This document shows positions 6,538-60,670 of a DNA stretch of 64,000 nt, one piece after another (within the stretch, counting starts at the first letter, position 1; every line of letters starts with the position of its first letter). A program made the translations under genes and the position numbers. Source of the DNA: a virus (lineage: Duplodnaviria > Heunggongvirae > Uroviricota > Caudoviricetes). The notes beneath the pieces were generated by a model. That model made no database searches, had not been told where the DNA came from, and saw nothing but the letters and a program-made list of their open reading frames with translations. Location of the stretch: IMG/VR virus record IMGVR_UViG_3300005260_000047. One strand, 5' to 3'.

Positions 6538-7178
6538 GACTTACCAGCCATGACGCGACAAAACTGCACAAAGGCGTCGGCGCCAGTCATGCCCGTATCC
6601 GCCTCGATCAAGGCCATCGCCGTGGCGACGACGCGCTCGTCTGCCCCCTTGATGGCTTTAAAACCAAGCGCCTTGGCGATCTGCACCGGCTTGTCGGCCG
6701 CCGCAGCGATGGTCGTCTTGGTTTCTTCCGCCTGCTGATTGATTTCAGCGTCCAGGTCGTCAACGAAGGCTGACGTATCGATCTCGCCAAGGTCGGCAAC
6801 GACGAACTTCAGTTCCTTTTCATCGAAGAAGCCTTCGAGCGAAAAATCCAGCGACGCCAGCTCTTTTTGCAGGATGTCGGTGTCGATATTGGAGATCGCC
6901 ACGCGGTTGTCCGCCAGGCGCAGCGCGCGCGCCTGCTCTACCGTCAAGTCGTCGCGCACCAATACCGGCACCTTGTCCATGCCAAGCGAGAGTGCCGCCA
7001 GGCGCCGGCCGTGTCCGGCGATGATCACGCCTTTGCTGTCAACGACGATCGGCTGCGTCCATCCGAATTCCTTGATCGATTTGGCGATCTTCTTGATTTG
7101 CGCGTCGTCATGGGTCTTGGCGTTCAATTCATAGGGAATGACGCGCTCGATTTCCCAGACTTGGATATTCGGTTTCAT
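6534..7178 (-). CDS. ParB-like nuclease / ParB-N (sulfiredoxin-fold) domain protein
   Basis: ParB-N arginine-rich motif 'IIAGHGRRLAAL'. The real start is MKPNIQVWEIERV at 7178; the track ORF to 7451 is over-extended. Confidence 0.8.
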   Translation of the reverse strand: MKPNIQVWEIERVIPYELNAKTHDDAQIKKIAKSIKEFGWTQPIVVDSKGVIIAGHGRRLAALSLGMDKVPVLVRDDLTVEQARALRLADNRVAISNIDTDILQKELASLDFSLEGFFDEKELKFVVADLGEIDTSAFVDDLDAEINQQAEETKTTIAAAADKPVQIAKALGFKAIKGADERVVATAMALIEADTGMTGADAFVQFCRVMAGKS

Positions 7179-7354
7179 GAAAATACTTTCAGCAAAAGGC
7201 AAATGACCCATGCGAATGCGGCCATGCCGCCGCAGGCTAACCAAACAATCGACGCGAGCGCGGCGATATACAGGTCGCGCGCCGTCAGCATCCACACCAG
7301 ACACAGGATAGACAGAACGGTCAAAAGCGTTGGGAAAATCCACCAGGCGATCAT
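7177..7354 (-). CDS. Small hydrophobic membrane protein (58 aa), translationally coupled to the ParB-like gene
   Basis: Hand translation gives MIAWWIFPTLLTVLSILCLVWMLTARDLYIAALASIVWLACGGMAAFAWVICLLLKVFS. The stop TGA overlaps the ATG of 6534..7178. It is below the 60-aa cutoff of the ORF track. Confidence 0.35.
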
Positions 7355-7581
7355 TGGACGCGCACCTCTTCATTGGTTTGGATCCATACCCGCGCACCGC
7401 ACGATAGCGGCTTATTCGGCTGGTAGACCACTTCGGCCACGACACGGCCATCCACGACGATCTGGGCGGTTGTGGCGCGACGGTTCCGCTTGTAATCCTT
7501 GACTGTCAGCGGCGGGTTCTGCACGCCGGTCTTGGTGTTGTCCTTGATGACATGCTGGTTGACGTGAATGATGGTTTTCAC
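7351..7581 (-). CDS. Hypothetical protein
   Basis: 76-aa ORF in the operon, with 4-nt overlaps to both neighbours. Confidence 0.45.
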   Translation of the reverse strand: MKTIIHVNQHVIKDNTKTGVQNPPLTVKDYKRNRRATTAQIVVDGRVVAEVVYQPNKPLSCGARVWIQTNEEVRVQ

Positions 7582-7760
7582 GCTGCCTCCTTGACTGGCT
7601 GAAAAAATCGGATGTTCTTCAAGTCATGAACGCCGAGTTCTTCGGACTCGTCGGTCGGCTCGAAATTGTCGCCATCCTCGCAGTCGTCACACTCGCCGGT
7701 CTGATTGCCGCAGTTGATGCAGTCTTCGCAGAATGGATAGCCCTTGTCGCAGCGCGTCAT
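7578..7760 (-). CDS. Small Cys-rich (zinc-ribbon-like) protein
   Basis: 'CEDCINCGNQTGECDDCEDGD' forms multiple CxxC pairs. The C-terminus is acidic. Confidence 0.45.
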   Translation of the reverse strand: MTRCDKGYPFCEDCINCGNQTGECDDCEDGDNFEPTDESEELGVHDLKNIRFFQPVKEAA

Positions 7761-7761
7761 G

Positions 7762-8412
7762 TCAGACCTCCACTTGATTCAAAAGCCACACCAGCGCGTC
7801 GCCGGCATTCGTCAGTTGGTCGGAATCGGTAAAGCCCTGACGCTTCATGACTTTTTCGATCTTGGTCTGCACATCCTTGCAATCCTCGGCCGGCACCTTA
7901 AAGCGCATTACTTGATGGGTCTGCACTGCCGGCGCTTTTGCTGCGCTTGGGGCAGCCGCGCCGTCGTCATCGGGAAGATCAAGCTCATCAAGGGCTATAG
8001 TTGCACTTGAGAAGATTGACGCGAAATCCGTGTCTGAATAAGGGAGGAAAGTTGAGAGGTCTTCGGGCGTGCCAAGCTCTTCGAGCAGTGCGGCCAGCCC
8101 CAGGGTGTCGTCTGCGCCGTAGCGCGCGTTGTCGATCAGTCCGATCTCTTTGGCCTTCTGGTCATCGATATAACCGAGGTTGAAGATGGGAACTTCATGC
8201 AGTCCAATCCGGATTGCCGCATCGCGTCGGTGCGCGCCGCCGAGAATTTGCAGCGTGCCGTCATGCAAGCTGCGCACGATGATCGGCTTGATGAAGCCAT
8301 GCCGGCGCAGCGAGGCGTCGATCTTGGCCTCGTTGTCCGGCGAGACAATGTTGGTGTTCCAGGGGTTCGGCTGCAACTGGCGCGGATCGGCGGTGCTTTG
8401 CATGAGTGGCAT
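7762..8412 (-). CDS. ParB-N domain protein (second copy)
   Basis: 'LQILGGAHRRDAAIRIG' is the ParB GxxRxxA box. An acidic linker follows. No HTH is evident. Confidence 0.75.
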   Translation of the reverse strand: MPLMQSTADPRQLQPNPWNTNIVSPDNEAKIDASLRRHGFIKPIIVRSLHDGTLQILGGAHRRDAAIRIGLHEVPIFNLGYIDDQKAKEIGLIDNARYGADDTLGLAALLEELGTPEDLSTFLPYSDTDFASIFSSATIALDELDLPDDDGAAAPSAAKAPAVQTHQVMRFKVPAEDCKDVQTKIEKVMKRQGFTDSDQLTNAGDALVWLLNQVEV

Positions 8413-8424
8413 CTTATAGAATGA

Positions 8425-8453
8425 TTGAAACTAAGTCAGTAATGACTTATACT
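8425..8453 (+). promoter_or_regulatory. Sigma70-like promoter TTGAAA-N17-TATACT, with a perfect AAGTCAgtaaTGACTT palindrome filling the spacer; divergent control region
   Basis: 8425 TTGAAA, 8433..8448 palindrome, 8448 TATACT. The ATG of the helicase gene is at 8473. The minus-strand ParB-like gene starts at 8412 on the other side. Confidence 0.5.
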
Positions 8454-11960: not shown

Positions 11961-12257
11961 TGGGCCTCCCGATTGCGATAAGTGCAATTATAGTGGGGGC
12001 TGGCCAAGTTTCCCTGGCGCTGTATCCAAGCTGCAACTGTTTATCGTGGAACACCGCGGATCCGGAATATGTTTATGGCATCGACCTGTCCGGCGGATCT
12101 GTCGATTTTCAATGGATTTTCGAACATATCGCTGGCTGTATAAGGATAGGGGCTGCCGGCTGCCAGGATTCTATAAGGATAGGGTTGGGAGGGTGGAAGA
12201 CGAGGAAGGCTGGGCCTACCAGGTCGAGCGATCGTCCTAAGACTTCGCCCTTTTTAT

Positions 12258-12397
12258 TGCTGCTTAATATTTCATCAACTCTGCTTGATGCTTGTGCGCG
12301 GTTAGTAGTGCGTTATCAAGTGCGCGCACTGCGCACACCATGCATGACACTGTAGAAACAACGAACACTAAAACGATTGCGAGATTTTTAAACATGA
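12258..12397 (-). CDS. Small hydrophobic peptide (45 aa), putative
   Basis: Hand translation gives MFKNLAIVLVFVVSTVSCMVCAVRALDNALLTAHKHQAELMKY. GGGAAA lies 8 nt upstream. Confidence 0.2.
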
Positions 12398-12424
12398 TCT
12401 TTTTCCCTGTTTGATGTTTGAGAA

Positions 12425-12446
12425 CTAGACCGCTTGCGCGGTCTAG
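12425..12446. repeat. Perfect inverted repeat CTAGACCGC-ttgc-GCGGTCTAG
   Basis: 9-bp arms immediately downstream of the 12462..13055 gene and next to a motif site at 12451..12465. Confidence 0.6.
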
Positions 12447-12461
12447 TAATTCACTAATGAC

Positions 12462-13055
12462 TTATGCGTTTGCGGTAAATAACGCGCTAAATGCTTTCGC
12501 TCTGTCATTGTCACAAAACCGCGTTATATCATTACGCTTGCCCTTTTGAACTTCGCAGATACCGAGATGCAAAAACATCATGCGCGTTGATGATGCTTGC
12601 GTTGATGCTGTACCCGCAGTGCATGACAAGCGCCCTATCAACGCTTTCGCTTGCTCTAATTCATCGTATTGCACCGCAGTAGACAAGCACATAAGGGTTT
12701 CTTTGTTGTTCAAATCATCAACTTTCAAAAGATTCTTTACAATCGCCCTTGTATATGGGTCAACTTCGCTTTTCAGGTTTTGACCGAGTGCAACCAATGA
12801 AGAAACAATTTTAACTAACACTTTGACCGCGATAAAATTCGCTTTGTCTTGCTTATGGTCTGCAATACGCGCTTTTTTCAATAGGTCTTTTGCGAGTTCT
12901 GCAAACTCAGGTTTGCTCATGACTAGATCAATAGCTGCTGAACCTGCTTGCGCGTTATTCAATGCGGTTTGTGTATCTTTGCTGAACTGTTCAGCATTAC
13001 GGGCGGTCAACACTTCAACGAATTTCACTGAAAAGGTTTTAGCTTGCTTAGACAT
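12462..13055 (-). CDS. Hypothetical all-alpha protein in an AT-rich island
   Basis: 197 aa. Local GC is visibly lower than the surrounding sequence. Confidence 0.55.
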   Translation of the reverse strand: MSKQAKTFSVKFVEVLTARNAEQFSKDTQTALNNAQAGSAAIDLVMSKPEFAELAKDLLKKARIADHKQDKANFIAVKVLVKIVSSLVALGQNLKSEVDPYTRAIVKNLLKVDDLNNKETLMCLSTAVQYDELEQAKALIGRLSCTAGTASTQASSTRMMFLHLGICEVQKGKRNDITRFCDNDRAKAFSALFTANA

Positions 13056-13104
13056 GATTTTTTCCCTTGTTTAGTTTGCTGCATCAACGTGATGCAGTAA
13101 CTAC

Positions 13105-13133
13105 ATAATAATTCACTACGGACTTATTTACAA
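13105..13133 (-). promoter_or_regulatory. Sigma70-like promoter TTGTAA-N17-TATTAT with an operator-like half-site in the spacer
   Basis: Minus strand reads TTGTAAataagtccgtagtgaatTATTAT, upstream of the 12462..13055 gene. Confidence 0.5.
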
Positions 13134-13445
13134 GCTTTTTTGCACGTATTTTTGAATTTATTTTTACATGCTTATTTTTGTTGTATTTGTGCAAATCGCT
13201 TGACATACGTGCAAAAACAAGATACACGCATGCGCGCACGCAGTCTTAGGATAGGCGTCGGCTTGGCGCGGGGTTGGAAGAGGCGCCCGACCGGCGCATC
13301 CTGGGCATATCAGGAAAACCTGCCATACAGCCGTTCCTAGGCCCGCAGCCGTATTCAGGCACAGCGCCGTACCCGGCCGGCGAGCCAGATCCTAGGCATG
13401 GGCGTGACGTGGAAAAGCGCCGATGCCAGCGCTTTCCTGTCAGGC

Positions 13446-13712
13446 TCAATGTCTGGCGCTGATCCTGGGTGTGCGTACCGGACGCACATAGCGGCCCTTG
13501 GCGCGGTGCAGGCTGTCTTCCGCATCCCACTGCATCAGTTCCAGCGCCGACACCGGCTCGTCATGGCTGGTGTCGTGACCAGGACAGTCGTCGGAAAAGC
13601 ATCCGTTGGGCGACACCGGCTCTTCATATACCCGTCCGCAATGCGGGCATTCAAAGGCGGCGCAAGTGCTGACGGGGCGCGCATGCGAGGCGATGGCGTG
13701 GATGGATTTCAT
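13446..13712 (-). CDS. Zinc-ribbon protein
   Basis: Start MKSIHAIAS with an AGGAG Shine-Dalgarno. 'CAAFECPHCG...CFSDDCPGH'. A motif site at 13725..13739 lies directly upstream. Confidence 0.5.
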   Translation of the reverse strand: MKSIHAIASHARPVSTCAAFECPHCGRVYEEPVSPNGCFSDDCPGHDTSHDEPVSALELMQWDAEDSLHRAKGRYVRPVRTPRISARH

Positions 13713-13758
13713 ACAAAACTCCTTATAAGTCATTAATGATTGATTCAACCAGGCGCAA

Positions 13759-13992
13759 TTACTGCGCGATCTGGCGCGGTGCGCGTCCGAAGAGAATGAA
13801 ATACGCCTGTTCAAAGGGAATGCCGCGGTTGCGCAGGTAACGCACACCAGCCCATGTTCCAAACTGCTTGATCTTTGAACGGTAAAACGCGAGGTCTTTG
13901 GCACTCATTTCGATTCCCTGTCTGGTTCGTTGCTGCGTCACGCGATGCAGTAGACGCATAGTCTCGAACCGCACCAGGATTGTCTGCGGCAA
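13759..13992 (-). CDS. Hypothetical protein
   Basis: 77-aa ORF; start uncertain. Confidence 0.35.
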   Translation of the reverse strand: MPQTILVRFETMRLLHRVTQQRTRQGIEMSAKDLAFYRSKIKQFGTWAGVRYLRNRGIPFEQAYFILFGRAPRQIAQ

Positions 13993-14099
13993 GCTGCATC
14001 CGTCCTGACAGGGAAAGGCGGCCGGCGGCCTAGGCGTGGCCTGAACGTTTCCTGGCCTGGGTGTCGTGTGGCCGGCAACTTGTTTATTTGTCAGGCGTG

Positions 14100-14192
14100 T
14101 CGTGTCCGGAGCCGCAGCCTGGCCTACCCAAGCGTTTCCTAAATACTTTATTACTTCACTACTTACTTATTTATATTTATATAGTATTTATA
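14100..14192 (-). promoter_or_regulatory. Second copy of the late-promoter-like block (CTTGGG repeats plus TATATAGTATTTATAGAAG)
   Basis: Minus strand reads cTTGGGGCtgcCTTGGcgttgCTTGGGGCC...CTTC-TATAAATACTATATAA. 14171..14189 is identical to 3658..3676. Confidence 0.45.
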
Positions 14193-14375
14193 GAAGACCC
14201 TGTCCGGCCCCAAGCAACGCCAAGGCAGCCCCAAAGCTAGGATTGATCCATGCCGGCGCCTAGGCTTCTTATAGCAGGCAGACAGGCATTTCTCCTATCC
14301 TGCTCCTATCTGGCTCCGTCACCGTATCTCTTACGGGCCGGTCAGCCATACATACTGCCAGCCCGCCGTATCCTG

Positions 14376-14555
14376 TCAGGCGTCGGTCAGGTTCTTCAAA
14401 TTGTTGGCGATCAAGGTGCCGAACTGCTCGACAAACCGCGGATCGTCAAAGGCTTTCTGCTCCTTTGCGTAAAGCAGTGCCGCACGGACGGTCATCGCAT
14501 CAATAATAGGCTCGCCGGCCCTCGTCAATACCTGTCCAATGTAATCAATAGTCAT
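14376..14555 (-). CDS. Small protein (59 aa), putative
   Basis: Hand translation gives MTIDYIGQVLTRAGEPIIDAMTVRAALLYAKEQKAFDDPRFVEQFGTLIANNLKNLTDA. AGGAG lies 6 nt upstream. It is below the cutoff of the ORF track. Confidence 0.35.
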   Translation of the reverse strand: MTIDYIGQVLTRAGEPIIDAMTVRAALLYAKEQKAFDDPRFVEQFGTLIANNLKNLTDA

Positions 14556-14828
14556 GCTCTCTCCTTGTGTGATGCTTACAGTTTCTCAAGCGGTTGCAGG
14601 CTTGTCTGTGGCAATCTATAAGATGCATTTCTCCTAGGCGCAACCTCAACCTTATACAGAGCGGGCCTGAACTATAATGGTCTTATACCAAGGCGAGTGC
14701 TTGGTTCCGGAGTGCTGCGACATGGCTGACAGGCGGCTCCACAGAGGGAAAATCAGGGTAAATTGCTGTAAGGCTTTCGAATAAGAGGCTTGAAGACGAT
14801 GAATGGAATACGTACCTCTCCAACTCTT

Positions 14829-14864
14829 TCACATACGATTTCACATACGATACATACGATTTCC
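14829..14864. repeat. Tandem CATACGAT(T) repeats (x3) inside a ~650-bp non-coding region (14556..15212)
   Basis: tcacatacgatt / tcacatacgata / catacgatttcc, followed by CCTAC/CA-rich low-complexity sequence. There is no credible ORF; the 14790..15020 plus-strand ORF is a translation of the repeats. Confidence 0.6.
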
Positions 14865-15198
14865 CCTACGACACCCATGCCTACCCATACTCATTCACAC
14901 GCTCCTACAGCACATGCGTCTACATATCCTTTCACGCTCATGCTCTTGTTGCCTGTGTTATTCCTCATTCCTGTTTGGCCGGTGAATTTTCATGGCCTGA
15001 CCAAAGCCTTGGCTTGGTGAATTGGTCTGGCTAATATATGTTCCGATTTCAAGCCTGACCTGCTGCTACTACTGCTCTTACTACTTATCCTGCCAACCAC
15101 GCTCCTATTGCCAATAACGCTTTAAACACTGCCCAAATAAATGCGATTGCTTCCAATATAAGCATCAAATCTCCTACTGTTTTACTTAACGCTGATCA

Positions 15199-15245
15199 AA
15201 GCCAGGTTCCTCCTACGGGCCTGGCTTTATTGTTTTTGCTTTCTC
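15199..15245 (+). terminator. Hairpin GCCAGG-N13-CCTGGC followed by TTTATTGTTTTTGC, a plus-strand terminator-like element
   Basis: It overlaps the 3' end of the minus-strand gene 15213..15557. Its orientation suggests it terminates a plus-strand transcript coming out of the non-coding region. Confidence 0.35.
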
Positions 15246-15557
15246 GATGATCTTATTGGCGAGATTGTGCAAGATGCGTTTTTCCTGGTCGGTTGCATTG
15301 TCCAAAATATCGGGTGCTGGATTACGCTCTTGGATATCTTGCCAAACGATGTTTTCGTCAATTAACAGTTGAACACCGTGTCCACCCTGCGCCCATCCAT
15401 ACCGGCGCGCGGTTTCATCGATTCTTTGCACTAGGGCGCTAAACTGTCTTGGGTGAACGGTTGGCAGGTCGCTTATTGCTTCGACTGCCTTTAACAGCCT
15501 GTCGTGAATTGCCTGCTCTTCTGGTGTAGCCGGTCGGAGCTTGCGTTCCTGGTTCAT
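15213..15557 (-). CDS. Hypothetical protein
   Basis: 114 aa. Confidence 0.5.
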   Translation of the reverse strand: MNQERKLRPATPEEQAIHDRLLKAVEAISDLPTVHPRQFSALVQRIDETARRYGWAQGGHGVQLLIDENIVWQDIQERNPAPDILDNATDQEKRILHNLANKIIEKAKTIKPGP

Positions 15558-15754
15558 GCGATCTCCTTTCTGCGTTTGATTTCGCGCGGCAGTCCTTTGG
15601 ATCCGGACAGTTCAGCCTGGATATCGGGATGGCGGCCGCCTGGAATGAATTCTTCTTGAAATTCGGTAATCGGGTCGATCGACAGGCTGAAGTAGTCGAT
15701 CCAGGAGTCGCCATGCTGGTTAATGGCAATGCGGATTGAGGTTTTATGGCTCAT
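15554..15754 (-). CDS. Hypothetical protein
   Basis: 66 aa. A TTGTAA-N17 promoter-like sequence with a motif site lies upstream at 15790..15818. Confidence 0.45.
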   Translation of the reverse strand: MSHKTSIRIAINQHGDSWIDYFSLSIDPITEFQEEFIPGGRHPDIQAELSGSKGLPREIKRRKEIA

Positions 15755-16109
15755 GGTGTTGTGTTGCGTGGTTCGTTGTTCGAAGTTCTATCATTCACGA
15801 ATGACTTAGGCGTTACAAGTTGGAAGATCATCTAGCCGACCGTTTTAAACGCGATTTAAGCTCTTTTGAAGTCGGGCGCTGTCTTGGTATGTCTTGCTTG
15901 AAATAATCGCAGGCCAGCCCGTTTGATGCGGTTGCCGAGCGTGTTTTAAGTTGACGGTTTTATCGTGTCGCATTTGGGCAGGAGCGTTTAGCACTTGTTG
16001 CGCGTTGGTTTTCAGCGCAGGCATAAATTATTGTTTGAAATCAAATACTTAGCCTAGGCTTGCCAAAGAATTGCCAAAACAGCCATTTTGGCTGCTTGGT
16101 AAGGGTGGA

Positions 16110-25585: not shown

Positions 25586-26266
25586 TCATGACTCATCCTT
25601 TCCGCTGTCTTGTGCGCTTGGCTGGCTGGCGGCATAGAGGGGCTCAATCCACGCATCACGCCACCCATGAAAATCTATCTGCTCGGCCATCCAACTTTCT
25701 GCTGATTTCAAGTCAAAGAAACCTGCGGGCAGCGCATAATCTGGCTGTATTGGCTGGCCTTTTGCGACACGATGCACAATCCAATGCTTCGCTACAGGCT
25801 CAGGGGAGGGCTGCGCTTTTACCTTTTCAAATAAATCTTTATAGGTGTTATATAGGTTAAGCGCAGTCCTCATTTCTTTTGCTGAGAAGGTCAGCGACTT
25901 TTCATCTTCGGTATTTCTCAATGTACTTAGAATTTCTTTAACACTCCGATCAGCTTGCTGCGCTCCCTGTGCCGGATCGGCTGGCGCGTCAAGTTGAGCG
26001 CACCTCCATCCGGTCAAAACAGCGTAATCCCATAAAGCCCCGATGCTCGGGTAGGGCATATCCTCCGGGAACTTCGGTAAGTTTGGAATGGAGATGCTGC
26101 GCATCGTCGCGGCTGGCGCATCCAGTTGAGTGCATAGGGCTGCTATTGCATCCTTAGCCTTTGCGACATGGCATTCCGGCGCATCGTTGTCTGGTGTGTC
26201 GCCGTCGCAAAAGGGTTTCAGGGCTTCTATCGCTTGCTCCATCGCCTTGCGCTGTGCGTCAGTCAT
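25586..26266 (-). CDS. Hypothetical protein
   Basis: 226 aa with a 4-nt overlap to the RF-like gene. Confidence 0.5.
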
Positions 26267-27015
26267 GCGAACCTCGGTTTAGTTGGTTGATCGTCTTTAA
26301 GCGGAGGAATCTTGGCCTGCAGCTTTTCGATATGCCTTGCCTGCTGCAACGCAAGTTCTTCCACGCTGTCTACGGCGTAAAAGTCCATGAGCTGCTTTAA
26401 CTCTGGCGCTACCGGCTCGGCTGGCTTGGATGCTTGGGCAAGCAGAGCGCGTACATCGCGGACGAATTCGAGCAAACGAACACCGTCGGGGAAGTGCCAC
26501 CCCGTGGCTGTCCATACCGTGTGGCTATGCGCTAACTCATATATTTCCCCGTCGCTGATCTGCGGGGAGGGCGCTACCAGCTCGGCTGTCTGTACCAGCT
26601 CGCTGGCATGGCTGGCGGCTACGTACTTGGCGTACAGTTTTGCCACATCCCGCAAAGCTACGGTATCGTAATCGGGGTGAATATCGTCCCCCTCTTTCCA
26701 GTATCCAAACGATGCCGTACTGATTGCAGCTAGCCGCATTACTTCCCGCTCATCCATCACTTCTGGCGCTGCGCTGGTGGCTTCCGGCAGGTCCACCTGT
26801 GCCGGTTCGACTGGCAAATTCGCCAGAATGCACCGCAGCTTCTCCAGCGCCACAGCCTTATTCTTGTGCTGACTGCGATCACCTGAGTATTCAACCGCAA
26901 TGCCTGACGGCAGATGCGTCAGGCGAACACCAGCATCATGCTTGGCAATAAAGCCACCTCCACCACCAGGAATGAAGGTGTCAATGCGCAAATCTTTCGG
27001 ATCGATTTCTACCAT
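26263..27015 (-). CDS. Class-I release-factor-like (GGQ-domain) protein with GGQ replaced by GGG, plus a 180-aa C-terminal extension of unknown function
   Basis: The N-terminus '[63 protein letters not shown]' aligns residue by residue with RF1/RF2 domain 3 ('...[49 protein letters not shown]...'). The sequence was re-translated by hand from the DNA. Confidence 0.7.
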
Positions 27016-27458
27016 GCTCCTACTCCTCCTAATACATCGTCGTCAGCCGCGGTAGTCGGCTTGTTCGGGTCGGGTGGCGGTGGCGGCGTCAAGATATTTC
27101 CCTCTTCAACGAACTCGCCTGCCTCGTCTATCTGGCTTTCTGTCCATTTCTCAAGGAATTCCTGATACCGTTTGATGCCCGCCTCTTCAGTCGGGAATGC
27201 CTGGTCGTTGTCCACCGGATCGTTGACCAGCGTGCCATCCTGCTTGTAATTCTTGACCAGCAGGATGAATACCGGCCAATATTCGGCATACGTCGATGCG
27301 GCCGCGCCATCGATCCGGCCATTCCATTGCAGCGTGACGCGCACCACGCCATTGTCATATTCCTTGACCGTCTTATAGGCAGGGTCAGCTTGCAGCTTCT
27401 TCCACTGCGCTTCGCTAATTGCCTTGCCTTCACGGTCGCGATATTGAGTTCGTGCCAT
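27009..27458 (-). CDS. Hypothetical protein
   Basis: 149 aa; Pro-rich segment PPPPPDP. Confidence 0.45.
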
Positions 27459-27467
27459 ATTCCCGCC

Positions 27468-27614
27468 TCACTGCACGCTAACTGCCGCCGGCGCCGTTTC
27501 CCGCCTGGCTTTAGCGCCGTTCTTAAGCATGTCTGACACCGTGACCGCCATAATGGCGATGATGGAGATAACGATCGCCAGTTCGATCAGGGTGAATCCT
27601 TTTGCATTTCTCAT
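27468..27614 (-). CDS. Prepilin-type N-terminal cleavage/methylation-domain peptide (48 aa)
   Basis: 'MRNAK-G|FTLIELAIVISIIAIMAV' is a class-III leader with G-1/F+1/E+5, checked by hand. GAGGAAAG Shine-Dalgarno. The ORF-track frame 27468..27830 has a non-coding-looking 5' extension. Confidence 0.5.
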   Translation of the reverse strand: MRNAKGFTLIELAIVISIIAIMAVTVSDMLKNGAKARRETAPAAVSVQ

Positions 27615-27970
27615 AGCTCTTTCCTCTTGTATAGCGGCTCGATCTTGTGCGGCGTGCCTTGCTTGAACTGCGCGTTGTTGTCCGGTTCCCACCATGAGCG
27701 AAGGCCAGGCGGCGTCACAAGCCAACCGGCCTGCTCCACGCCCATCGTGAATTCGATTTCGTTGTCTTTGAACGGCTGAATCGGCGATCCCATAAAGCAG
27801 TGCGGGCCAAAAATGTGCATCAAATCCCACAGTGGCACCTCCAGCACATCGCCTTCCGCTTTAGGCGTCCAGCTCCGCTCCGATAGCGCCAGTCGGTGAT
27901 GCGCGTTGTGAGCGGCGGCGCCTAGTTTTGTTAGCCTGACCCTGACCTGCGCATTGATATTGAATTTCAT
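27611..27970 (-). CDS. Hypothetical protein
   Basis: 119 aa with an ATGA overlap to the pilin-like ORF. Confidence 0.45.
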   Translation of the reverse strand: MKFNINAQVRVRLTKLGAAAHNAHHRLALSERSWTPKAEGDVLEVPLWDLMHIFGPHCFMGSPIQPFKDNEIEFTMGVEQAGWLVTPPGLRSWWEPDNNAQFKQGTPHKIEPLYKRKEL

Positions 27971-28687: not shown

Positions 28688-28903
28688 CTAAGTCAGTTGT
28701 GAGTAAAGCACATTGCCGATAAGAATCAGCAGTCCGATCAGCATGATCATGACGCCGGCCGTGATGGCACCTGCACCGTCGCCATACTCCGGCTCCAGCC
28801 TGGCTTGCAGCGTGTCGCCAAGATAAAACAGGGCGCCGCAGACTGGCGGCAGGCAAATCATCATGGCGCCGACGGTGGTGATAGCGATTTGCATTGGTGT
28901 CAT
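28688..28903 (-). CDS. Small two-transmembrane-helix membrane protein
   Basis: 71 aa with two hydrophobic helices. Confidence 0.4.
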   Translation of the reverse strand: MTPMQIAITTVGAMMICLPPVCGALFYLGDTLQARLEPEYGDGAGAITAGVMIMLIGLLILIGNVLYSQLT

Positions 28904-31597: not shown

Positions 31598-32389
31598 TTA
31601 CTTGCCGACGTTGATCATCTTGGACGACGAGCTGCCGTCGAGAATCACCGTGCCGCCCTTCTTAGCAAATTCCAACAAAGCTTGGTTGTATTCATGCTGA
31701 AGGAATGCCGGTGTCAGCGTGTTGGCCGTTTTCGCAACCGCTTCGGCGTTCTTTTCGGCGATCGCCACCTGAAGGTTGGCCGCTTCGAGTTCCTTGCCTT
31801 TTGCCACCACATTGCGGATCGAGGCTTCGACAGTCGGATCGGTCGTCACCTGTCGCACCACGACACGGGTAATGGTGAAGGCATTCGGATCAGATGCGTC
31901 GAGGCTCTTTTGAATAGCCATTCTGACTTCGTTTTCCAGCTCGTTTCGCCGCGTGTGAATCACAAGGCTGTCATGGTGCGATACCGCATCGGCAACTTCG
32001 GACTTGGCGATCGACTCGACCAGCCGGTAGGCGGGCGTAAGAAAGCTATCACCTTCGAATCTCACCGATTGACCGGCCCGCTTGACGGCAAGGTCGCGCA
32101 CCGCCTGGGGTGAATTGACCTTGTAATAGACGGTGACATCCAACTCCTTCAAGGAAAGGTTGTCGTGTGCCTTTGGCGTCATGTTTTCCAGATTGACCGC
32201 CACTTCCTTCAACGTGTATTGGTCAACATGGCTCATGAGCGCCGTGTAAAGACCTTCCTGCTCGACTTTGGAATTGACCGTGCCGTTGAAATCGGTGCGC
32301 AGCCCGACATTGCCGGTTTCGATCCGGCCGTAACAGCCAGTCAGCGTGAGGGTGGCGACCAGCGCCATCAGATAAAACAGTTTTTTCAT
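31598..32389 (-). CDS. SPFH/band-7 (prohibitin/HflKC-like) lipoprotein
   Basis: Signal peptide plus a 'LTLTGC' lipobox. SPFH-like core followed by a coiled-coil. Confidence 0.65.
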   Translation of the reverse strand: MKKLFYLMALVATLTLTGCYGRIETGNVGLRTDFNGTVNSKVEQEGLYTALMSHVDQYTLKEVAVNLENMTPKAHDNLSLKELDVTVYYKVNSPQAVRDLAVKRAGQSVRFEGDSFLTPAYRLVESIAKSEVADAVSHHDSLVIHTRRNELENEVRMAIQKSLDASDPNAFTITRVVVRQVTTDPTVEASIRNVVAKGKELEAANLQVAIAEKNAEAVAKTANTLTPAFLQHEYNQALLEFAKKGGTVILDGSSSSKMINVGK

Positions 32390-32417: not shown

Positions 32418-32615
32418 TTAAAAAAGATGATCGAGATTGCTGATGATGGAAAACAGCGCAATGGCAAACAGTGCGCCGCCCAATGCGACGAAGGCGCCTT
32501 TAATGACGCGCTCGACGCGATCGGCAGTCACGTAATTGGTGTAAAACAGCAGATACAGCCCGCCTACTCCCGTCAGAAACAGCAGCAGGCAAATCAAGCC
32601 AATGCGAAATAACAT
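32418..32615 (-). CDS. Small two-transmembrane-helix membrane protein (upstream partner of the SPFH gene)
   Basis: 65 aa, almost entirely hydrophobic. Two operator-like sites with TATAAT/TATATA lie upstream at 32626..32668. Confidence 0.45.
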   Translation of the reverse strand: MLFRIGLICLLLFLTGVGGLYLLFYTNYVTADRVERVIKGAFVALGGALFAIALFSIISNLDHLF

Positions 32616-32898: not shown

Positions 32899-33200
32899 CA
32901 GTCCTCCTTCGCGTCAATGTTGGCCAAGCCAGCCGCCTTCAGCTTGCGGCACAGCCTGCGCTCGTCGGCATCCTTCTTGTAGCTGTCCTCCCGCTTTTGC
33001 CAGTAAAGGTTGTAAGTGGCGTCCGCGCCGCCGGCACATAGCGGCATGCCGTGGTCAACCACCCAACCAGGACAAGCGCCAGTGATCTTGGCGGTTTCAG
33101 GGCAAGGATGCGTTTTGCGGAATTCGCGGATCACTTTCGGATCGCGCGCCTGGGCCGCGGTAGCAACCAACAGCGCCAGGATGATGACGAACTTTTTCAC
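32898..33200 (-). CDS. Secreted small HNH-motif (His-Me finger) protein
   Basis: Signal peptide 'MKKFVIILALLVATAAQA', followed by 'CPGWVVDHGMPLCAGGADATYNLYWQ', which is HNH-like. Confidence 0.45.
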   Translation of the reverse strand: MKKFVIILALLVATAAQARDPKVIREFRKTHPCPETAKITGACPGWVVDHGMPLCAGGADATYNLYWQKREDSYKKDADERRLCRKLKAAGLANIDAKED

Positions 33201-33412
33201 TTCATTGCCTTTCGATTGTAATGGCGGCGCACAAAGTAGCCGCGCACGATTGACCAGATGGTGAAAACAGCCACAAACAGAAAGCTTTGCCCGACCGAGG
33301 CTTTTACGCCAAACAGCACAGGGATTAGCACGTAGTTAATGATCATGGAGCCAACGAAACCTATGACGGTTCCGACGATTACTTCTTCCAGGCTATGACG
33401 GCGAGATTGCAT
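33197..33412 (-). CDS. Small membrane protein
   Basis: 71 aa with two transmembrane segments. Confidence 0.4.
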   Translation of the reverse strand: MQSRRHSLEEVIVGTVIGFVGSMIINYVLIPVLFGVKASVGQSFLFVAVFTIWSIVRGYFVRRHYNRKAMK

Positions 33413-34052: not shown

Positions 34053-34481
34053 TCAAATCTTTTTCATTTGTCGAAGGCGTTGATCGACATCCCTGTCGAT
34101 ACGCCGCTGTTCTTCAGATACCGGCTCATGCCAGCCTCGCTCATTTCTCGTCTGCTTTGGTCGCGCCCGATACCAGTCAACAGCGAGTTGCGCCTGCTCT
34201 CGTTTCAGGATCAAATCTGGAAGGATTGCCTCAAGAAGCGCTGCCGCCGACTCGCCCTGGATAAGCCAGTTGAATTTCTCTCTCGCGCCGCGTGATGGAT
34301 ATTTACTCACCTTGCCGCCGAACCGCCCCTGCATACTGTTCAAAAGGCTTTCCGACTCAAGGCTTTTGTTTTGGACGACTTGAACGACTAGCGTGTGGGA
34401 GGACTTCCGCCCATTCTCATAGACGGAAATACAGCCTTCACCATCCACAAAACCTGCGATATAAGCGAGTGGCGGACACAC
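34053..34481 (-). CDS. LAGLIDADG-family homing endonuclease (single-motif, free-standing)
   Basis: 'LAYIAGFVDGEGC' is the LAGLIDADG motif. It lies 2 nt downstream of rtcB. Confidence 0.7.
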   Translation of the reverse strand: MCPPLAYIAGFVDGEGCISVYENGRKSSHTLVVQVVQNKSLESESLLNSMQGRFGGKVSKYPSRGAREKFNWLIQGESAAALLEAILPDLILKREQAQLAVDWYRARPKQTRNERGWHEPVSEEQRRIDRDVDQRLRQMKKI

Positions 34482-36380: not shown

Positions 36381-36780
36381 TCAGCTTGCCTGCCGCGCGC
36401 TCCATCGCCTTGCGCGCCATCTCCGGTGAGGCGGCTGTGATGGTCGGGCCGCCGATTTCTGACCCATCCAAGCGCTTTTCCACCTTCATGATCGATTCGT
36501 CAGCCGTCCATTCGAGCGTCACAATCAGGTTTTCTTTGACGAAATGGCGCTTGATGACCGCAAGCTTTGCCGGCACTTCGTCAGACGCCGTCGTGATCAA
36601 GTCCACCACATCGGCATCAACCAAACCGGAAGTCGCCATGAATAAGGCGTCAAGGCCGCAACGAAACTGCGGCTCGGTTAGCTTGCCCTTGTCATAGGAA
36701 GTAATCAGCCAGTCGATTGTCTCGAATGCCTTGCGGTCGAGTTCTTCGCGAATGGTTGGAAGTCGCGGCAGTGCGCTCAT
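36355..36780 (-). CDS. Hypothetical protein
   Basis: Start MSALPRLPT. Confidence 0.45.
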   Translation of the reverse strand: MSALPRLPTIREELDRKAFETIDWLITSYDKGKLTEPQFRCGLDALFMATSGLVDADVVDLITTASDEVPAKLAVIKRHFVKENLIVTLEWTADESIMKVEKRLDGSEIGGPTITAASPEMARKAMERAAGKLIGEGYAEL

Positions 36781-36974
36781 TTCGGCCAAAATGCCCAAAC
36801 CGTGTAGCCGATCAGAATAAATGGCCCGATGCGCACGACCATTGCCACGACCATCGCTGGCGGCAGCTTGCTCCAGCCGCCAACGAACATGGCCAGCGGC
36901 GTCAATACGCACCAGAGGACAAAGGCGATTACCGCGCCCCACGCACCCAATGCAATCCATTGATGTTCTGTCAC
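36777..36974 (-). CDS. Small membrane protein
   Basis: Likely GTG start with an AGGAGG Shine-Dalgarno 5 nt upstream. Confidence 0.4.
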   Translation of the reverse strand: MTEHQWIALGAWGAVIAFVLWCVLTPLAMFVGGWSKLPPAMVVAMVVRIGPFILIGYTVWAFWPK

Positions 36975-37002
36975 TTTCCCCTCCTTGCGCAACATTGCGC
37001 TA

Positions 37003-39619: not shown

Positions 39620-40177
39620 TTAAGAGGTTTGTCGATACTGTGGTTTTTGTGAAACCCGCCAGGATTTGCCATAAACCCTGTCGAGCGCCTTTGGGATTGT
39701 GTTGCGGCTTACCCCAAGCCTTTCTGCTATTGAAATCAACTTTTCGCCAGAGAAAACCGCGCTATACGCCTGCTTAACCTGATCTTCCGAAAGCTTCGCT
39801 GATCCATTAGCAAAGCCTTTCGAGTCGATTAAGCCAGTCGCAATGCCGTGCTGGATGTTCTCTAATTCAGTTACCCATTCAAGATTGCTTACGGCGTTAT
39901 TGTGCTTATTTCCGTCTTTATGATTTACCCCCGGCTTATTGTTTGGATTTGGGATGAACGCTTCTGCAACGAGCCTGTGAACACGATGCGTTCTAACCTC
40001 CCCGCCCTTCGCAAGACGAATGGTCAAGTATCCAGTGCAGTGTTCCGACAGCTTTCGTTCCATACCTGGCACGAATTGTCTCCCCAGCCGCGTGTGAGGC
40101 ACCCATCTTTCTAATGAAAAGATGCGTCCATCTTCCGTAACTGCGTAAAGCCCTTCGTAGCCAGGTATTGCTTTCAT
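39620..40177 (-). CDS. HNH homing endonuclease (NUMOD4-like N-terminus, HNH_3, C-terminal HTH)
   Basis: 'GYEGLYAVTEDGRIFS', 'VNHKDGNKHNNAVSNLEWVT' and 'ISIAERLGVSRNTIPKAL'. Confidence 0.8.
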   Translation of the reverse strand: MKAIPGYEGLYAVTEDGRIFSLERWVPHTRLGRQFVPGMERKLSEHCTGYLTIRLAKGGEVRTHRVHRLVAEAFIPNPNNKPGVNHKDGNKHNNAVSNLEWVTELENIQHGIATGLIDSKGFANGSAKLSEDQVKQAYSAVFSGEKLISIAERLGVSRNTIPKALDRVYGKSWRVSQKPQYRQTS

Positions 40178-53495: not shown

Positions 53496-54065
53496 CTATA
53501 CATTTGTCCAAGACCTTCCGGTCTTGATATCAGAAATAGTCGTCTGATCAACGCCAAACTCTTTTGCCAAACGCGATACATCACCCCACCTTGCGGCTTG
53601 CAATCGCCTTTTTATTTCAATCACTTGTGACTTATTCAACGTGGCGGCGGGATTTCGCTCACCTTGAAAGTCGGTTCCATGCTTTTTCTTGTCCGCATGG
53701 TTCGCAGTGACCGTCTTCCACTCAAGATTCGTTAGCGCGTTATTTGAAGGATCGCCATCGTTGTGTGCGCCATGAACATTGCGCGGATCCCCTGGACGCG
53801 ACCCAACAAATGTCTCCAAAACTAAGACGTGAACGGACTCATATTTAACTTCACCGCCCTTCCTCAAACCCACCCGCAAGTAGCCACTAGGTTCTCGCTT
53901 TAGCTTCATCAATGTTGGAGTAGAAGCAAGACTATGGCTATTTCCGGCTCGTCTCGACAGCCAACTTCTGACATTCCCGCTGTCAGAAACGTCGTAAAGT
54001 CCTTCATACCCACGAATCTGCGCCCACTGCTCCATCACTCGATCCTTCTCAAATAAATCACACAC
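53496..54065 (-). CDS. HNH homing endonuclease (NUMOD4-like, HNH, HTH)
   Basis: 'GYEGLYDVSDSGNVRS', 'HGAHNDGDPSNNALTNLEW' and a C-terminal 'FGVDQTTISDI'. Confidence 0.8.
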   Translation of the reverse strand: MCDLFEKDRVMEQWAQIRGYEGLYDVSDSGNVRSWLSRRAGNSHSLASTPTLMKLKREPSGYLRVGLRKGGEVKYESVHVLVLETFVGSRPGDPRNVHGAHNDGDPSNNALTNLEWKTVTANHADKKKHGTDFQGERNPAATLNKSQVIEIKRRLQAARWGDVSRLAKEFGVDQTTISDIKTGRSWTNV

Positions 54066-58551: not shown

Positions 58552-59811
58552 TTATGCAAGCATATCGGCCACCTTTTCAAATATCGCCTTCAAGACTTCC
58601 GCCTTGCTAGAATCGAAAATGATCTGTTGCGCATTGATGCCGCAGACGATTGAGGCATCCAGCGCCGGATCGTAAATCACCCTGCCCGCCAGCTCCGCGG
58701 TGCCACCCTTGACGCCAGGCACGAAGCGCTTGATGGCGGCACTCCCCAACGCTACGATGATCGGCGGCTTGATCAGCGCAATCTCATGGTCAAGAAACGC
58801 CTTGCAGCCGTTGATCTGCCCGTTGGAAAGGAACTTGTCGTTTTTCTTCGCCTTGACCAGCGTCGTGTAATAGCCATCGGCCGGCGACAGCCCGACATCC
58901 GTAATGGCGGCTTTGATGAAATCAGCCGCATCCCCTTCAAGCAGCTTGTCTGCTTTTTCTTCCTGCCAGGATGGGCAGTCTGATACCACCATGAACTTGA
59001 TGTTAGCCTTCATGCGCACGGCCGGATGAGGCTGACCAGCCAAATCGCAACCTTCACACTTGCGGTAATCCTGGATCAAATGAATGATCTTGGTGCGCAA
59101 GAACGGATCCTTCACATCGGTCGAGCGATCCGCCTTGACGCTATCGATAATCAGTCCTGGCATCAGGTCGAGCTGATCCTTGCGGCGATCCAGATGCCGT
59201 GCAGGTTTGCTTCCCGCCTCAATATCGGCAAGCGCACCAACCAGCCGCAGATTCTCGACCACCTTGGCGTTGACCTTCGAGCCTGGCTGTGAAGCTGCCA
59301 GCATGAATTCTTCAGCCGTATCGAAGCGGCCCTTGCATGGCGAATCTTCATCCAATCCATAGACTGCTTCGATCGTGCCGTCGCGCTTCTTTTTCTGCTT
59401 GACGACTTTCCAGCCCCGATTGCGCTCCCGCAATTCAACAATGCGCTTTGCCGTGTTTTCAGAAATGCCCTTGACGCTTGAGAAGGGCGCCAAAAGATGC
59501 TTGTCGTCGGGAATAGTGAAGCGATGTGTGGAGCGGTTGACATCGGGCGGCAAGACCTCGATGCCATACTCGCGCGCATCCTTGACCAGCCCTTCGAGCT
59601 TGTCGTCGCCTACGATCGACAGGCAAGCGGCAAAGTATTCAGCCGGATAGCGCACCCGCAGCCACATTGTCCAATAACTCACAATCGAATATTCAATGGC
59701 GTGTGATCTGTTGAATCCATATCCGGCGAACGCGGCGATCTTGTCGAACAGACTATCTGCCGCCGACTCACTCATGCCATTTTTAAGCGGCTTGACACTC
59801 TTGATTTTCAT
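58552..59811 (-). CDS. DNA polymerase III alpha (DnaE-type) C-terminal fragment, plus a possible UDG-like C-terminal domain
   Basis: '[43 protein letters not shown]' matches DnaE '[35 protein letters not shown]'. This continues where the 60539..62893 ORF loses homology. Confidence 0.7.
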   Translation of the reverse strand: [419 protein letters not shown]

Positions 59812-60496
59812 TATTCATCCTCACTAAATTGTGAATCTGCGTCCGCGACACATCAAACATTTCCGCCAACTTTTGAATGGTGGCACCCTCCGCCCGCTTT
59901 TTCTTTACCTCCAGCTTTTCGCTGTCAGTCAAAAAACGCACGACACGTTTCGCCTCGGTCAGCGGGCCGCCAGCATTGGGCCACTTCTTTCCTGCGCAGA
60001 TATGCCACACGTAGACATCAGGCAAGTTGTAGTCTTTGCCGATCGAAGCAAGCGACTCGTCATTCGCACGCCGGCACCTGATTGCCACAACATCCTTCTC
60101 CTTCAACTTGTGCCAGGAAATCAGCTCGCCTGCTGGTTGCGTTCCGTGCATCAGCTTGTCTTCGCAGTTCTCTGTTGGCGTGCCGTAGCGCAGGTTAGCC
60201 AGTCTATTGTTGGACGGGGTGTTATCACCGTGAAGAACGTAATACCCTTCAGGGCAAGGCCCGACGAACGCCTCCATCACAAGCCGGTGTCCGAAATCAC
60301 AATGCCTAACTCCCGCCACCGAGAACTCAAACCAGTGATAACCCCAAGGGTGGCGACGCGACTTGAGAATTCGCCCGCGCGCCAGCCGCTTATGGCCGTT
60401 CTTGCAGTTAACCATCGAATCAACCCTCCTAACGCGGCCTTGATCCGATACCTCGATCACATTTCCAAACCTGGCGAGTGGCTTCCAGACTTCCAT
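59783..60496 (-). CDS. HNH homing endonuclease inserted within the DnaE gene
   Basis: 'GYYVLHGDNTPSNNRLANLRYGTPTENCEDK' is the HNH motif. C-terminal HTH 'TIQKLAEMFDVSRTQIHNLV'. Confidence 0.8.
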   Translation of the reverse strand: MEVWKPLARFGNVIEVSDQGRVRRVDSMVNCKNGHKRLARGRILKSRRHPWGYHWFEFSVAGVRHCDFGHRLVMEAFVGPCPEGYYVLHGDNTPSNNRLANLRYGTPTENCEDKLMHGTQPAGELISWHKLKEKDVVAIRCRRANDESLASIGKDYNLPDVYVWHICAGKKWPNAGGPLTEAKRVVRFLTDSEKLEVKKKRAEGATIQKLAEMFDVSRTQIHNLVRMNNENQECQAA

Positions 60497-60670
60497 GTTG
60501 ATTACCTTCGATGAATGGGCAAGAAAGACACGTTACACTCACCACTGACTGATGTCAACACCGTCTTTGATGGCGGTTTCAACCGTCCTTTTAATGCCAT
60601 CGACGCACATGAACTTGGCGCTGCGATGCACGCGCTTGATCGTGCCATCCTCCAGCTCGACCTCGATCTC
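59785..60670 (-). mobile_element. ~0.9-kb intervening sequence splitting dnaE (group I intron with an HNH ORF, or a free-standing HEG insertion)
   Basis: DnaE homology stops ~43 codons before the stop of ORF 60539..62893 and resumes at residue ~10 of ORF 58552..59811. The HNH ORF fills the gap. Confidence 0.5.

Follow-up and report, generated by a model that had tools for sequence, protein, structure and literature searches.

Why would a phage encode the N-terminus of a type IV pilin and almost nothing else? The question is raised by a 48-residue peptide gene at positions 27468-27614 of a 64,000-nucleotide stretch of DNA (the window) from a virus of the Caudoviricetes, IMG/VR record IMGVR_UViG_3300005260_000047. 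The window belongs to a soil-metagenome contig of 260 kb (ERZ923681, k127_11291). The peptide consists of a prepilin-type signal, an alpha1-N membrane helix and a short unconstrained tail. By the pattern of its substitutions, its gene is a selected accessory gene, patchily distributed, in which the constrained part is the pilin N-terminal module. Our tentative answer, to which we assign a probability of roughly 0.45, is that the product is a headless pilin which, once processed by the PilD prepilin peptidase of the host, would compete in the assembly of type IV pili (T4P) or of the type II secretion system (T2SS) and so give superinfection exclusion.

A prepilin signal and a membrane helix

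A preliminary description of the locus had given its coordinates and the 48-residue translation correctly; the gene lies on the minus strand, with its ATG start at 27614-27612 and its TGA stop at 27470-27468. The elements of the locus are as follows.

27468-27614, minus strand: prepilin-like peptide gene MRNAKGFTLIELAIVISIIAIMAVTVSDMLKNGAKARRETAPAAVSVQ, 48 codons and a stop, supported by its translation, PF07963, TIGR02532 and public gene calls
27597-27614, minus strand: class III signal leader MRNAKG, six residues, net charge +2, Gly at -1
27534-27596, minus strand: mature residues 1-21, FTLIELAIVISIIAIMAVTVS, an alpha1-N-like hydrophobic helix with F1, T2 and E5, supported by hydropathy, AlphaFold2 and the ratio of nonsynonymous to synonymous substitution rates (dN/dS)
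27471-27533, minus strand: polar tail DMLKNGAKARRETAPAAVSVQ, 21 residues, net charge +2, one Pro and no Cys
27621-27626, minus strand: Shine-Dalgarno-like GAGGAA, with the end of GAGG 8 nt before the ATG of the peptide gene
27611-27970, minus strand: upstream gene, 119 residues (beginning MKFNINA), whose TGA stop overlaps the ATG of the peptide gene (ATGA)
27009-27458, minus strand: downstream gene, 149 residues (ending GAW), used below as an anchor; it begins 9 nt past the stop of the peptide gene

The complete sequence is MRNAKG followed by FTLIELAIVISIIAIMAVTVS-DMLKNGAKARRETAPAAVSVQ. Removal of the six-residue leader would leave 42 residues, in agreement with the size of the mature product given in the preliminary description. 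Public metagenome annotation calls the gene in the same 48-residue form. A longer in-frame open reading frame (ORF) of 120 residues, starting at GTG, was rejected as spurious; it overlaps the conserved upstream gene in another frame. Through the ATGA overlap, the peptide gene is translationally coupled to the upstream gene. Scans for promoters and terminators returned nothing above background level.

The N-terminus had been described as a class III signal with Gly at -1, Phe at +1 and Glu at +5. The translation and two signal models bear this out. The peptide scores 34.9 bits against the Pfam model PF07963 (N_methyl; cutoff 21.2, E 1e-8) and 29.9 bits against the NCBIfam model TIGR02532 (cutoff 16.3), to which the two orthologues described below score 18.4 and 34.7. 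A short basic leader, G-1, F+1 and E+5 are followed by a hydrophobic run of 21 residues. Every sequence-level hallmark of a prepilin signal domain is therefore present, and cleavage and N-methylation are predicted. PilD removes a short basic leader at G-1/F+1 and methylates F1, and the pseudopilins of the T2SS are processed as well (PMC3584216). The full pattern, defined as Met, a basic leader, Gly, an FTLIE-like core and at least 14 hydrophobic residues, occurs once in the window and not at all in 300 dinucleotide-preserving shuffles; the bare seven-residue core alone occurs 0.2 times per such shuffle. The motif in the peptide is not a chance match, and it is the sole prepilin motif in the 64-kb window.

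Beyond the signal, the peptide offers little more than a helix. Its best 19-residue Kyte-Doolittle window is 2.57. AlphaFold2, run with the three-sequence alignment, predicts a single helix at residues 9-40, with high confidence only at residues 11-30 (block values of the predicted local distance difference test 93 and 88) and a weak C-terminus. The closest sequences of solved structure are the Geobacter PilA-N chains (7tgg, 9egp), MshA and PilA, all over the first 26-32 residues only; the two PilA-N chains are the best of these and match just the first 26. NCBIfam equivalog models for pilins and pseudopilins also align to the N-terminal 23-46 residues only, at 16-25 bits against cutoffs of 44-400. 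Because these full-length models reach the N-terminus alone and fall far below threshold, the peptide is not assignable to T4P, to the T2SS or to competence pili.

Several known classes can be set aside on what the peptide lacks. It has neither alpha1-C nor the globular alpha/beta head of a structural type IVa pilin or pseudopilin (PilA, GspG, FimU, GspH-K, ComGC). None of the three orthologues contains a Cys, and neither a C-terminal disulfide (D-region) nor a calcium site is present. The neighbours are phage genes rather than pil, gsp or com assembly genes. The Geobacter PilA-N subunit, about 61 mature residues long, pairs with an adjacently encoded PilA-C. It keeps alpha1-C, and the 149-residue protein encoded next to our peptide has neither a signal nor a hydrophobic segment, so that it is no PilA-C-like partner. 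A split pilin was accordingly rejected, since both neighbours are without a hydrophobic or signal segment and both persist where the peptide is missing. The Flp pilins of the Tad (type IVc) system resemble the peptide more closely in build, with no globular domain, a single helix and 45 against 42 mature residues. They carry a G/XXXXEY-type motif, have their own peptidase and lie in a tad locus; in the peptide the residue after E5 is L (V or L in the orthologues), and no Flp family is among the Pfam hits. The preliminary description had called the mature product far shorter than any structural pilin, a claim that fails on the Tad pilin of Caulobacter, which has 45 mature residues and does form a filament (PMC11067988). 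What the peptide does have is the prepilin signal on a phage protein that marks phage-encoded pilin mimics, and the layout of the headless prepilin micro-ORFs of large or virulent phages, a leader and alpha1-N with or without a short tail.

Orthologues in the same slot

With the downstream 149-residue gene as an anchor, we collected 12 distinct related loci from IMG/VR and public assemblies. In two of the 12, a prepilin-like micro-gene occupies the identical slot between the MKFNINA-type gene and the anchor. The orthologue at L002:3774-3911 encodes 45 residues (MKKATGFTIIEVMIVIAIAIILAALVFGDSKRQPEQTKPVVTNSR), lies beside an anchor that is 73% identical and also has the ATGA overlap. The orthologue at L025:2860-2988 (identical to L026:1215-1343) encodes 42 residues (MKNKTGFTLIELVIVVAIVAIISSVVYGKIYPPVTDKIVHSK), has an anchor that is 66% identical and carries a precomputed PF07963 hit. 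Both are preceded by a Shine-Dalgarno sequence at comparable spacing (AAGGAG in L002, AGGAG in L025).

The three peptides share a six-residue leader of net charge +2 that ends in Gly, and a hydrophobic segment of 21-22 residues. M1, G6, F7, T8, I10, E11, I14, V15, I18, I21 and V26 are invariant. The tails are 14-21 residues long (17 and 14 in the two orthologues), all of net charge +2 and all containing Pro, and cannot be aligned. Over the first 26 codons, dS is 1.1-1.65, meaning that synonymous sites are saturated, and dN/dS is 0.19-0.32. A conserved signal and helix with a drifting tail is the pattern that a pilin or pseudopilin mimic predicts. Since E+5, F+1 and T+2 never vary and the tail is free of constraint, the role of the peptide probably begins after cleavage and lies within the membrane.

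The other ten loci are without the peptide, and their 4-8 kb contain no prepilin motif. Homologues of the downstream gene are present in all ten and homologues of the upstream gene in several. In the closest relative (L023:2980-3001; anchor 82% identical), the flanking genes lie 11 nt apart with no trace of the peptide gene. From the comparison of L023 with window positions 27458-27614, the micro-gene has been gained or lost as a precise cassette.

Searches with the peptide itself added nothing to this family. A tblastn search gave no match, probably since the hydrophobic helix is masked as low complexity; a first protein search returned only the query; and exhaustive representative and profile protein searches found no further members. 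The short 'pilins' that the representative and profile searches did return were rejected as relatives, as they resemble contig-end fragments of ordinary pilins.

These data bear on the possibility that the ORF is a non-functional remnant, either what is left, at the 5' end, of a captured host pilin gene or an ORF that arose by chance. Its patchy distribution and dispensability would fit a remnant, as would the many short 'pilin' entries in databases that are fragments at contig ends. However, the ORF is intact in three lineages despite the saturated synonymous divergence and the low dN/dS. The Shine-Dalgarno sequence is conserved in all three, and the ATGA overlap in the window and L002. There is no trace of a downstream pilin domain and no room for one, because the next gene starts 9 nt past the stop. 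The full motif never arose in the 300 shuffles, and convergent families exist in other phages. Selection and recurrence largely exclude a dead remnant, which we regard as extremely unlikely.

Short prepilins in other phages and the genomic setting

Matches to the peptide among the PHROGs include the short families phrog_13280 (67 positions), phrog_10597 (59) and phrog_11263 (72), and phrog_3433, which is annotated 'pilin'. A codon-specific DNA pattern for GFTLIEL retrieved 68 loci from IMG/VR, with 58 complete prepilin-like ORFs, nine of which encode 81 residues or fewer. On contigs above 200 kb all six ORFs are this short (28, 29, 31, 45, 80 and 81 residues), as opposed to three of 52 on smaller contigs, where the median is 156 residues (Fisher p = 2e-6). 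The choice of codons biases this sample, related phages account for two of the six large-contig ORFs, and many of the smaller contigs may carry host pilin genes. Miniaturised prepilins may thus be a trait of giant phages. The short ORFs of interest are listed here.

L104:796-882 (Aeh1, NC_005260 39873-39959): Aeromonas-phage micro-ORF
L109:497-592 (PX29): Aeromonas-phage micro-ORF
L105:738-821, L106:542-628, L107:582-665 and L108:542-628: micro-ORFs of other Aeromonas phages
L088:7430-7525: IMG/VR short prepilin ORF (this and the next three among L036-L103)
L080:6312-6449, minus strand: IMG/VR short prepilin ORF
L071:2941-3183, minus strand: IMG/VR short prepilin ORF
L100:2480-2725: IMG/VR short prepilin ORF

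Two ultrashort ORFs of this sample belong to the cultured T4-like Aeromonas phages Aeh1 and PX29. Aeh1p044 (NP_943922.1) has 28 residues (MKGFTLIELIVVVAILGILFSVVAPAIF) and is described in GenBank as 'similar to N-terminal sequence of bacterial secretion protein pilin'; PX29 gp038 (YP_009011467.1) has 31 and is noted as 'similar to N-terminal part of fimbrial protein (pilin)'. Unannotated equivalents lie between nrdB and nrdD in phiAS5, avDM12-TAAL, phiWae14 and Ah1. In total, six T4-like Aeromonas phages have an MKGFTLIEL-type micro-ORF of 27-31 residues, annotated in Aeh1 and PX29 only. None of the papers in the library searched connects Aeh1 with pilin. Like the peptide, these micro-ORFs comprise a prepilin signal and the alpha1-N helix only and belong to large virulent phages, in a setting of early and nucleotide-metabolism genes. 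They are also tightly packed, with start/stop overlap, as checked in Aeh1 and PX29. Unlike the peptide, they lack a polar tail, number about 25 residues when mature and have just M-K-G as their leader; their slot (nrdB/nrdD) and phage lineage are unrelated, and their host is known and culturable.

The 31-residue ORF is on a contig of 312 kb and the 45-residue ORF on one of 263 kb, each in an array of closely packed genes. Neighbours on the 312-kb contig match phage families; on the 263-kb contig none do, and its viral nature is less certain. In L088 the 31-residue ORF sits between a membrane protein of phrog_2087 and a protein of phrog_1383, which is annotated as a virion structural protein. 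When the window was compared with eight IMG/VR loci that have short or ultrashort prepilins (L080, L088, L071, L100, L016, L012, L067 and L062), no other protein matches were found. The peptide has only the generic motif in common with the other headless micro-ORFs. Since no further proteins are shared and the slots differ, the headless design looks convergent, to judge from these comparisons, rather than the mark of one family. The peptide extends an already recorded kind to a new phage lineage and an intermediate size. The cases together suggest that headless prepilins are recurrent but overlooked in large virulent phages.

A second class of mini-pilins, of 61-102 residues, was also seen in phages. 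These have a normal N-terminus and a short C-terminal loop between two Cys, for example C-x2-G-[YF]...G-x-x-V-x-C or C-x-P...C-x-DGK-x-YT, and no beta-sheet domain. Members are located as follows.

L006-L008:3001-3249: second mini-pilin class
L012:3001-3279: second mini-pilin class
L022:2751-3035: second mini-pilin class
L062:8397-8582, minus strand: second mini-pilin class
L016:2995-3303: second mini-pilin class
L100:2480-2725 (listed above) and L071: second mini-pilin class

The window itself is plainly phage DNA, and the preliminary description was right to speak of a phage operon. It encodes the large terminase, a UvsW-like helicase and two ParB-like proteins, along with a DnaE-type polymerase that an HNH endonuclease divides in two. 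Ribonucleotide reductase, ThyX, SbcCD, UvsX, gp32, a flap endonuclease, RtcB, and HNH and LAGLIDADG homing endonucleases are also encoded. Nearly all genes are on the minus strand. The peptide gene is in a one-directional array of early and replication genes, within a group of small genes that has the replication genes on one side and the terminase end on the other. Genes for an RNase T-like exonuclease, an RF-1 domain protein and a Band_7 lipoprotein are among its neighbours, as are several for tiny membrane proteins (28688-28903, 32418-32615, 33197-33412 and 36777-36995). Megablast and blastn against cultured phages found no nucleotide-level relative of the region, and the DnaE-type polymerase is at most 49% identical to Rhizobium phage polymerases. 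No tRNAs, sought as clues to the host, were found in the window.

Some features of this setting are recorded for their own sake. The DnaE-type polymerase is encoded as a 784-residue N-terminal part (60539-62893) and a 419-residue C-terminal part with HHH_6 and UDG-like domains (58552-59811), with an HNH/NUMOD4 homing endonuclease gene (59783-60496) between them, all on the minus strand. This is one of four minus-strand homing endonuclease genes in the replication module (34053-34481, 39620-40177, 53496-54065 and 59783-60496), one a LAGLIDADG gene adjoining RtcB and three of the HNH/NUMOD4 type. The 250-residue RF-1 domain protein (26263-27015, minus strand) has an RF-1/peptidyl-tRNA hydrolase domain (PF00472, 54 bits) and a long C-terminal extension; by eye, GGGGGF seems to stand at the position of the catalytic GGQ, and the Gln may be absent. 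The GC fraction is 0.49-0.50 at 12000-16000, compared with about 0.55 elsewhere, and the left 20 kb are of mixed gene orientation, in contrast to the strictly minus-strand array to the right. The Band_7/SPFH protein has a lipoprotein-like signal (MKKLFYLMALVATLTLTGC) and is encoded at 31598-32389 on the minus strand, 4 kb from the peptide. In L080, a 470-residue membrane protein (7019-8431, minus strand), flotillin-like by eye and with no PHROG hit, lies near the unrelated 45-residue stub. The two occurrences may be coincidence.

The setting admits a different explanation, in which the product is a small inner-membrane peptide with a target outside type IV filaments, such as membrane potential, lysis timing or some other envelope protein. 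The prepilin signal would then be a compact means to insert and trim a single-pass helix. The several other genes for tiny membrane proteins in the region and the lack of pilus genes nearby are in keeping with this, as is the position of the 31-residue ORF of L088 beside a membrane protein. However, ordinary transmembrane helices need no G-1, F+1, T+2 and E+5, which are invariant here and recur in unrelated phage lineages, and no recognisable lysis gene adjoins the peptide gene. We consider a target of this kind distinctly unlikely.

How a headless pilin could act

For the headless pilin, we envisage the following sequence of events. The peptide would be expressed alongside the early and replication genes of a large, probably virulent phage, and would be inserted in the host inner membrane. 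A host prepilin peptidase of the PilD/GspO type would cut after Gly6 and N-methylate Phe1. Through F1, E5 and the hydrophobic helix, the product would rival host pilins or pseudopilins both at the assembly platform and in the contacts between subunits. Functional T4P, or T2SS pseudopili, would then be fewer, shorter or stripped of receptor surface. The phage would benefit because pilus-dependent competitors would be excluded and fewer progeny would be lost on cells already infected. Insertion, processing, target and phenotype are steps that we infer.

The residues that are kept suit such a role. Strom and Lory reportedly described requirements for E5 and G-1 in PilA. In type IVa pili, Glu at +5 is the charge partner of the neighbouring N-terminus, and for Tad pilins the conserved Glu is stated to serve assembly and not processing (PMC11067988). 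Three orthologues that score above curated thresholds, purifying selection and the convergent cases in other phages all count for a headless pilin, and so does a setting of early, replication and small membrane-protein genes. The preliminary description had proposed a chain terminator or pseudopilin mimic. The mimic is upheld to the extent that the gene is selected and its conserved part is the module recognised by the peptidase and the pilus; the chain terminator is one of several mechanisms that sequence does not distinguish.

Phage proteins that act on pili supply precedents, namely P-FimU, truncated phage PilA, and phage peptides that block PilC or PilB. In six virulent Pseudomonas phages, PilA is cut to about 60 N-terminal residues (Sztanko et al., Cell Rep 2026, PMC12952977). 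The authors propose that it either joins the pilus while lacking receptor sites or inhibits assembly. As in our peptide, a pilin is reduced to its N-terminal helix in non-temperate phages. It differs in its length of about 60 residues and in retaining alpha1-C, a comparison made by description and not by sequence. A tblastn search with 60-residue Pseudomonas PilA N-termini did not recover these truncated proteins; it hit only Acinetobacter and Salmonella records apparently mislabelled as phage, and cyanophage pilin-like genes of at least 100 residues. P-FimU, encoded by prophages, becomes part of the Pseudomonas type IV pilus and stops phages that bind the tip (PMC12952977). Like the peptide it is phage-encoded with a prepilin signal; it enters the host T4P pathway and protects against pilus-binding phages. 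Yet P-FimU, from F10-like Pseudomonas prophages, is a functional minor pilin of full length that has extra loops as well as a globular domain. The pilus is not impaired when P-FimU takes the place of FimU at its tip. The peptide, by contrast, lacks a globular domain and has no surface to present.

Other small phage proteins block T4P through PilC, as PfsE does (PMC8764522), or through PilB or PilZ (PMC11656802). PfsE, Tip/Aqs1, Zip and the synthetic CIP are, like the peptide, small and either phage-encoded or pilin-derived, and they disable or retune T4P and give resistance to pilus-dependent phages. Unlike it, none of PfsE, Tip/Aqs1 and Zip is described with a prepilin signal, and their targets are PilC, PilB or PilZ. 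They are found in temperate or filamentous Pseudomonas phages, while CIP is a laboratory peptide and not a phage gene.

A number of points weigh against a headless pilin. The gene is dispensable, being missing from 10 of 13 related loci, the closest relative included. Neither a prepilin peptidase (an A24-like multi-pass protein) nor any other pilus gene was found in the 64-kb window. That the host has T4P or a T2SS, and that this phage or its competitors use pili, is an assumption. A peptide of 48 residues is too short for co-translational targeting by the signal recognition particle. Post-translational insertion would be needed and, as tail and leader have the same net charge of +2, charge bias does not enforce an N-in topology. 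The usual helix breakers G14 and P22 are missing. Many of the contacts in type IVa filaments run through alpha1-C and the globular domain, both of which the peptide lacks, so efficient incorporation is uncertain.

A rival scheme, in which the peptide stays out of the filament, is an intramembrane signal mimic: the helix, processed or not, would imitate a full inner-membrane pilin pool and bind the transmembrane segment of a pilin-sensing kinase of the PilS-PilR or PleC type, switching pilin expression off or setting off retraction and altered second-messenger output. A 17-residue transmembrane segment of Caulobacter PilA suffices for PleC signalling, and within 10 min of adding the 17-residue peptide, susceptibility to the pilus-specific phage CbK had fallen by 77% (PMC7196804). 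Accumulation of pilin in the inner membrane acts on PilS and lowers pilA expression, as stated in a passage of PMC11960060 that cites Kilmury & Burrows 2016. The Aeromonas-phage versions, at about 25 mature residues, approach a bare transmembrane helix, and the sequence of the tail would be immaterial. However, transcriptional shut-off is slow relative to a lytic cycle, a large pool of mature pilin would persist, and PilSR-type sensing is not present in all hosts. Signal mimicry by itself also leaves the strict retention of the basic leader and G-1 unexplained. On balance it is unlikely.

In another scheme the peptide is a sink for the prepilin peptidase. As an excess minimal substrate or a slow-release ligand of PilD/GspO, it would starve all host prepilins and pseudopilins of processing and disable T4P, the T2SS and competence pili together. 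The known recognition features, a six-residue basic leader, G-1, F+1 and a hydrophobic stretch, are kept exactly (PMC3584216), and one enzyme serves both pili and the T2SS. But E+5, T+2 and helix length are conserved too, though E5 is tied to assembly and not to processing. The existing pool of mature pilin would long sustain pilus cycling, and a good substrate is turned over and makes a poor inhibitor unless very abundant. We hold such a sink to be very unlikely. A broader scheme joins the two, with headless prepilins as a widespread, convergent tool of giant virulent phages that act not as filament subunits but as intramembrane mimics of the pilin pool, minimal natural ligands of pilin-sensing kinases, of the prepilin peptidase or of both. 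This too seems quite doubtful. If it were true, pilus retraction, cyclic di-GMP and PilSR outputs, secretion and competence would be reprogrammed within minutes of infection, and the 48-residue peptide would offer one natural starting point for a broad-spectrum peptide against pili and secretion.

Type IV pili and type II secretion are of major importance both as receptors for phages and as machines of virulence, and phages have proved to be a source of specific pilus inhibitors. The value of the peptide is that of an additional data point for a recurrent phage strategy, for which the Aeromonas phages Aeh1 and PX29 provide culturable systems. Should the peptide have no effect on pili, the prepilin signal would have been reused as a general device for tiny membrane peptides. 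If a headless pilin is what it is, a natural peptide of about 40 residues, keeping only the part of a pilin that the peptidase, the platform and the sensor see, would define a minimal interference module.

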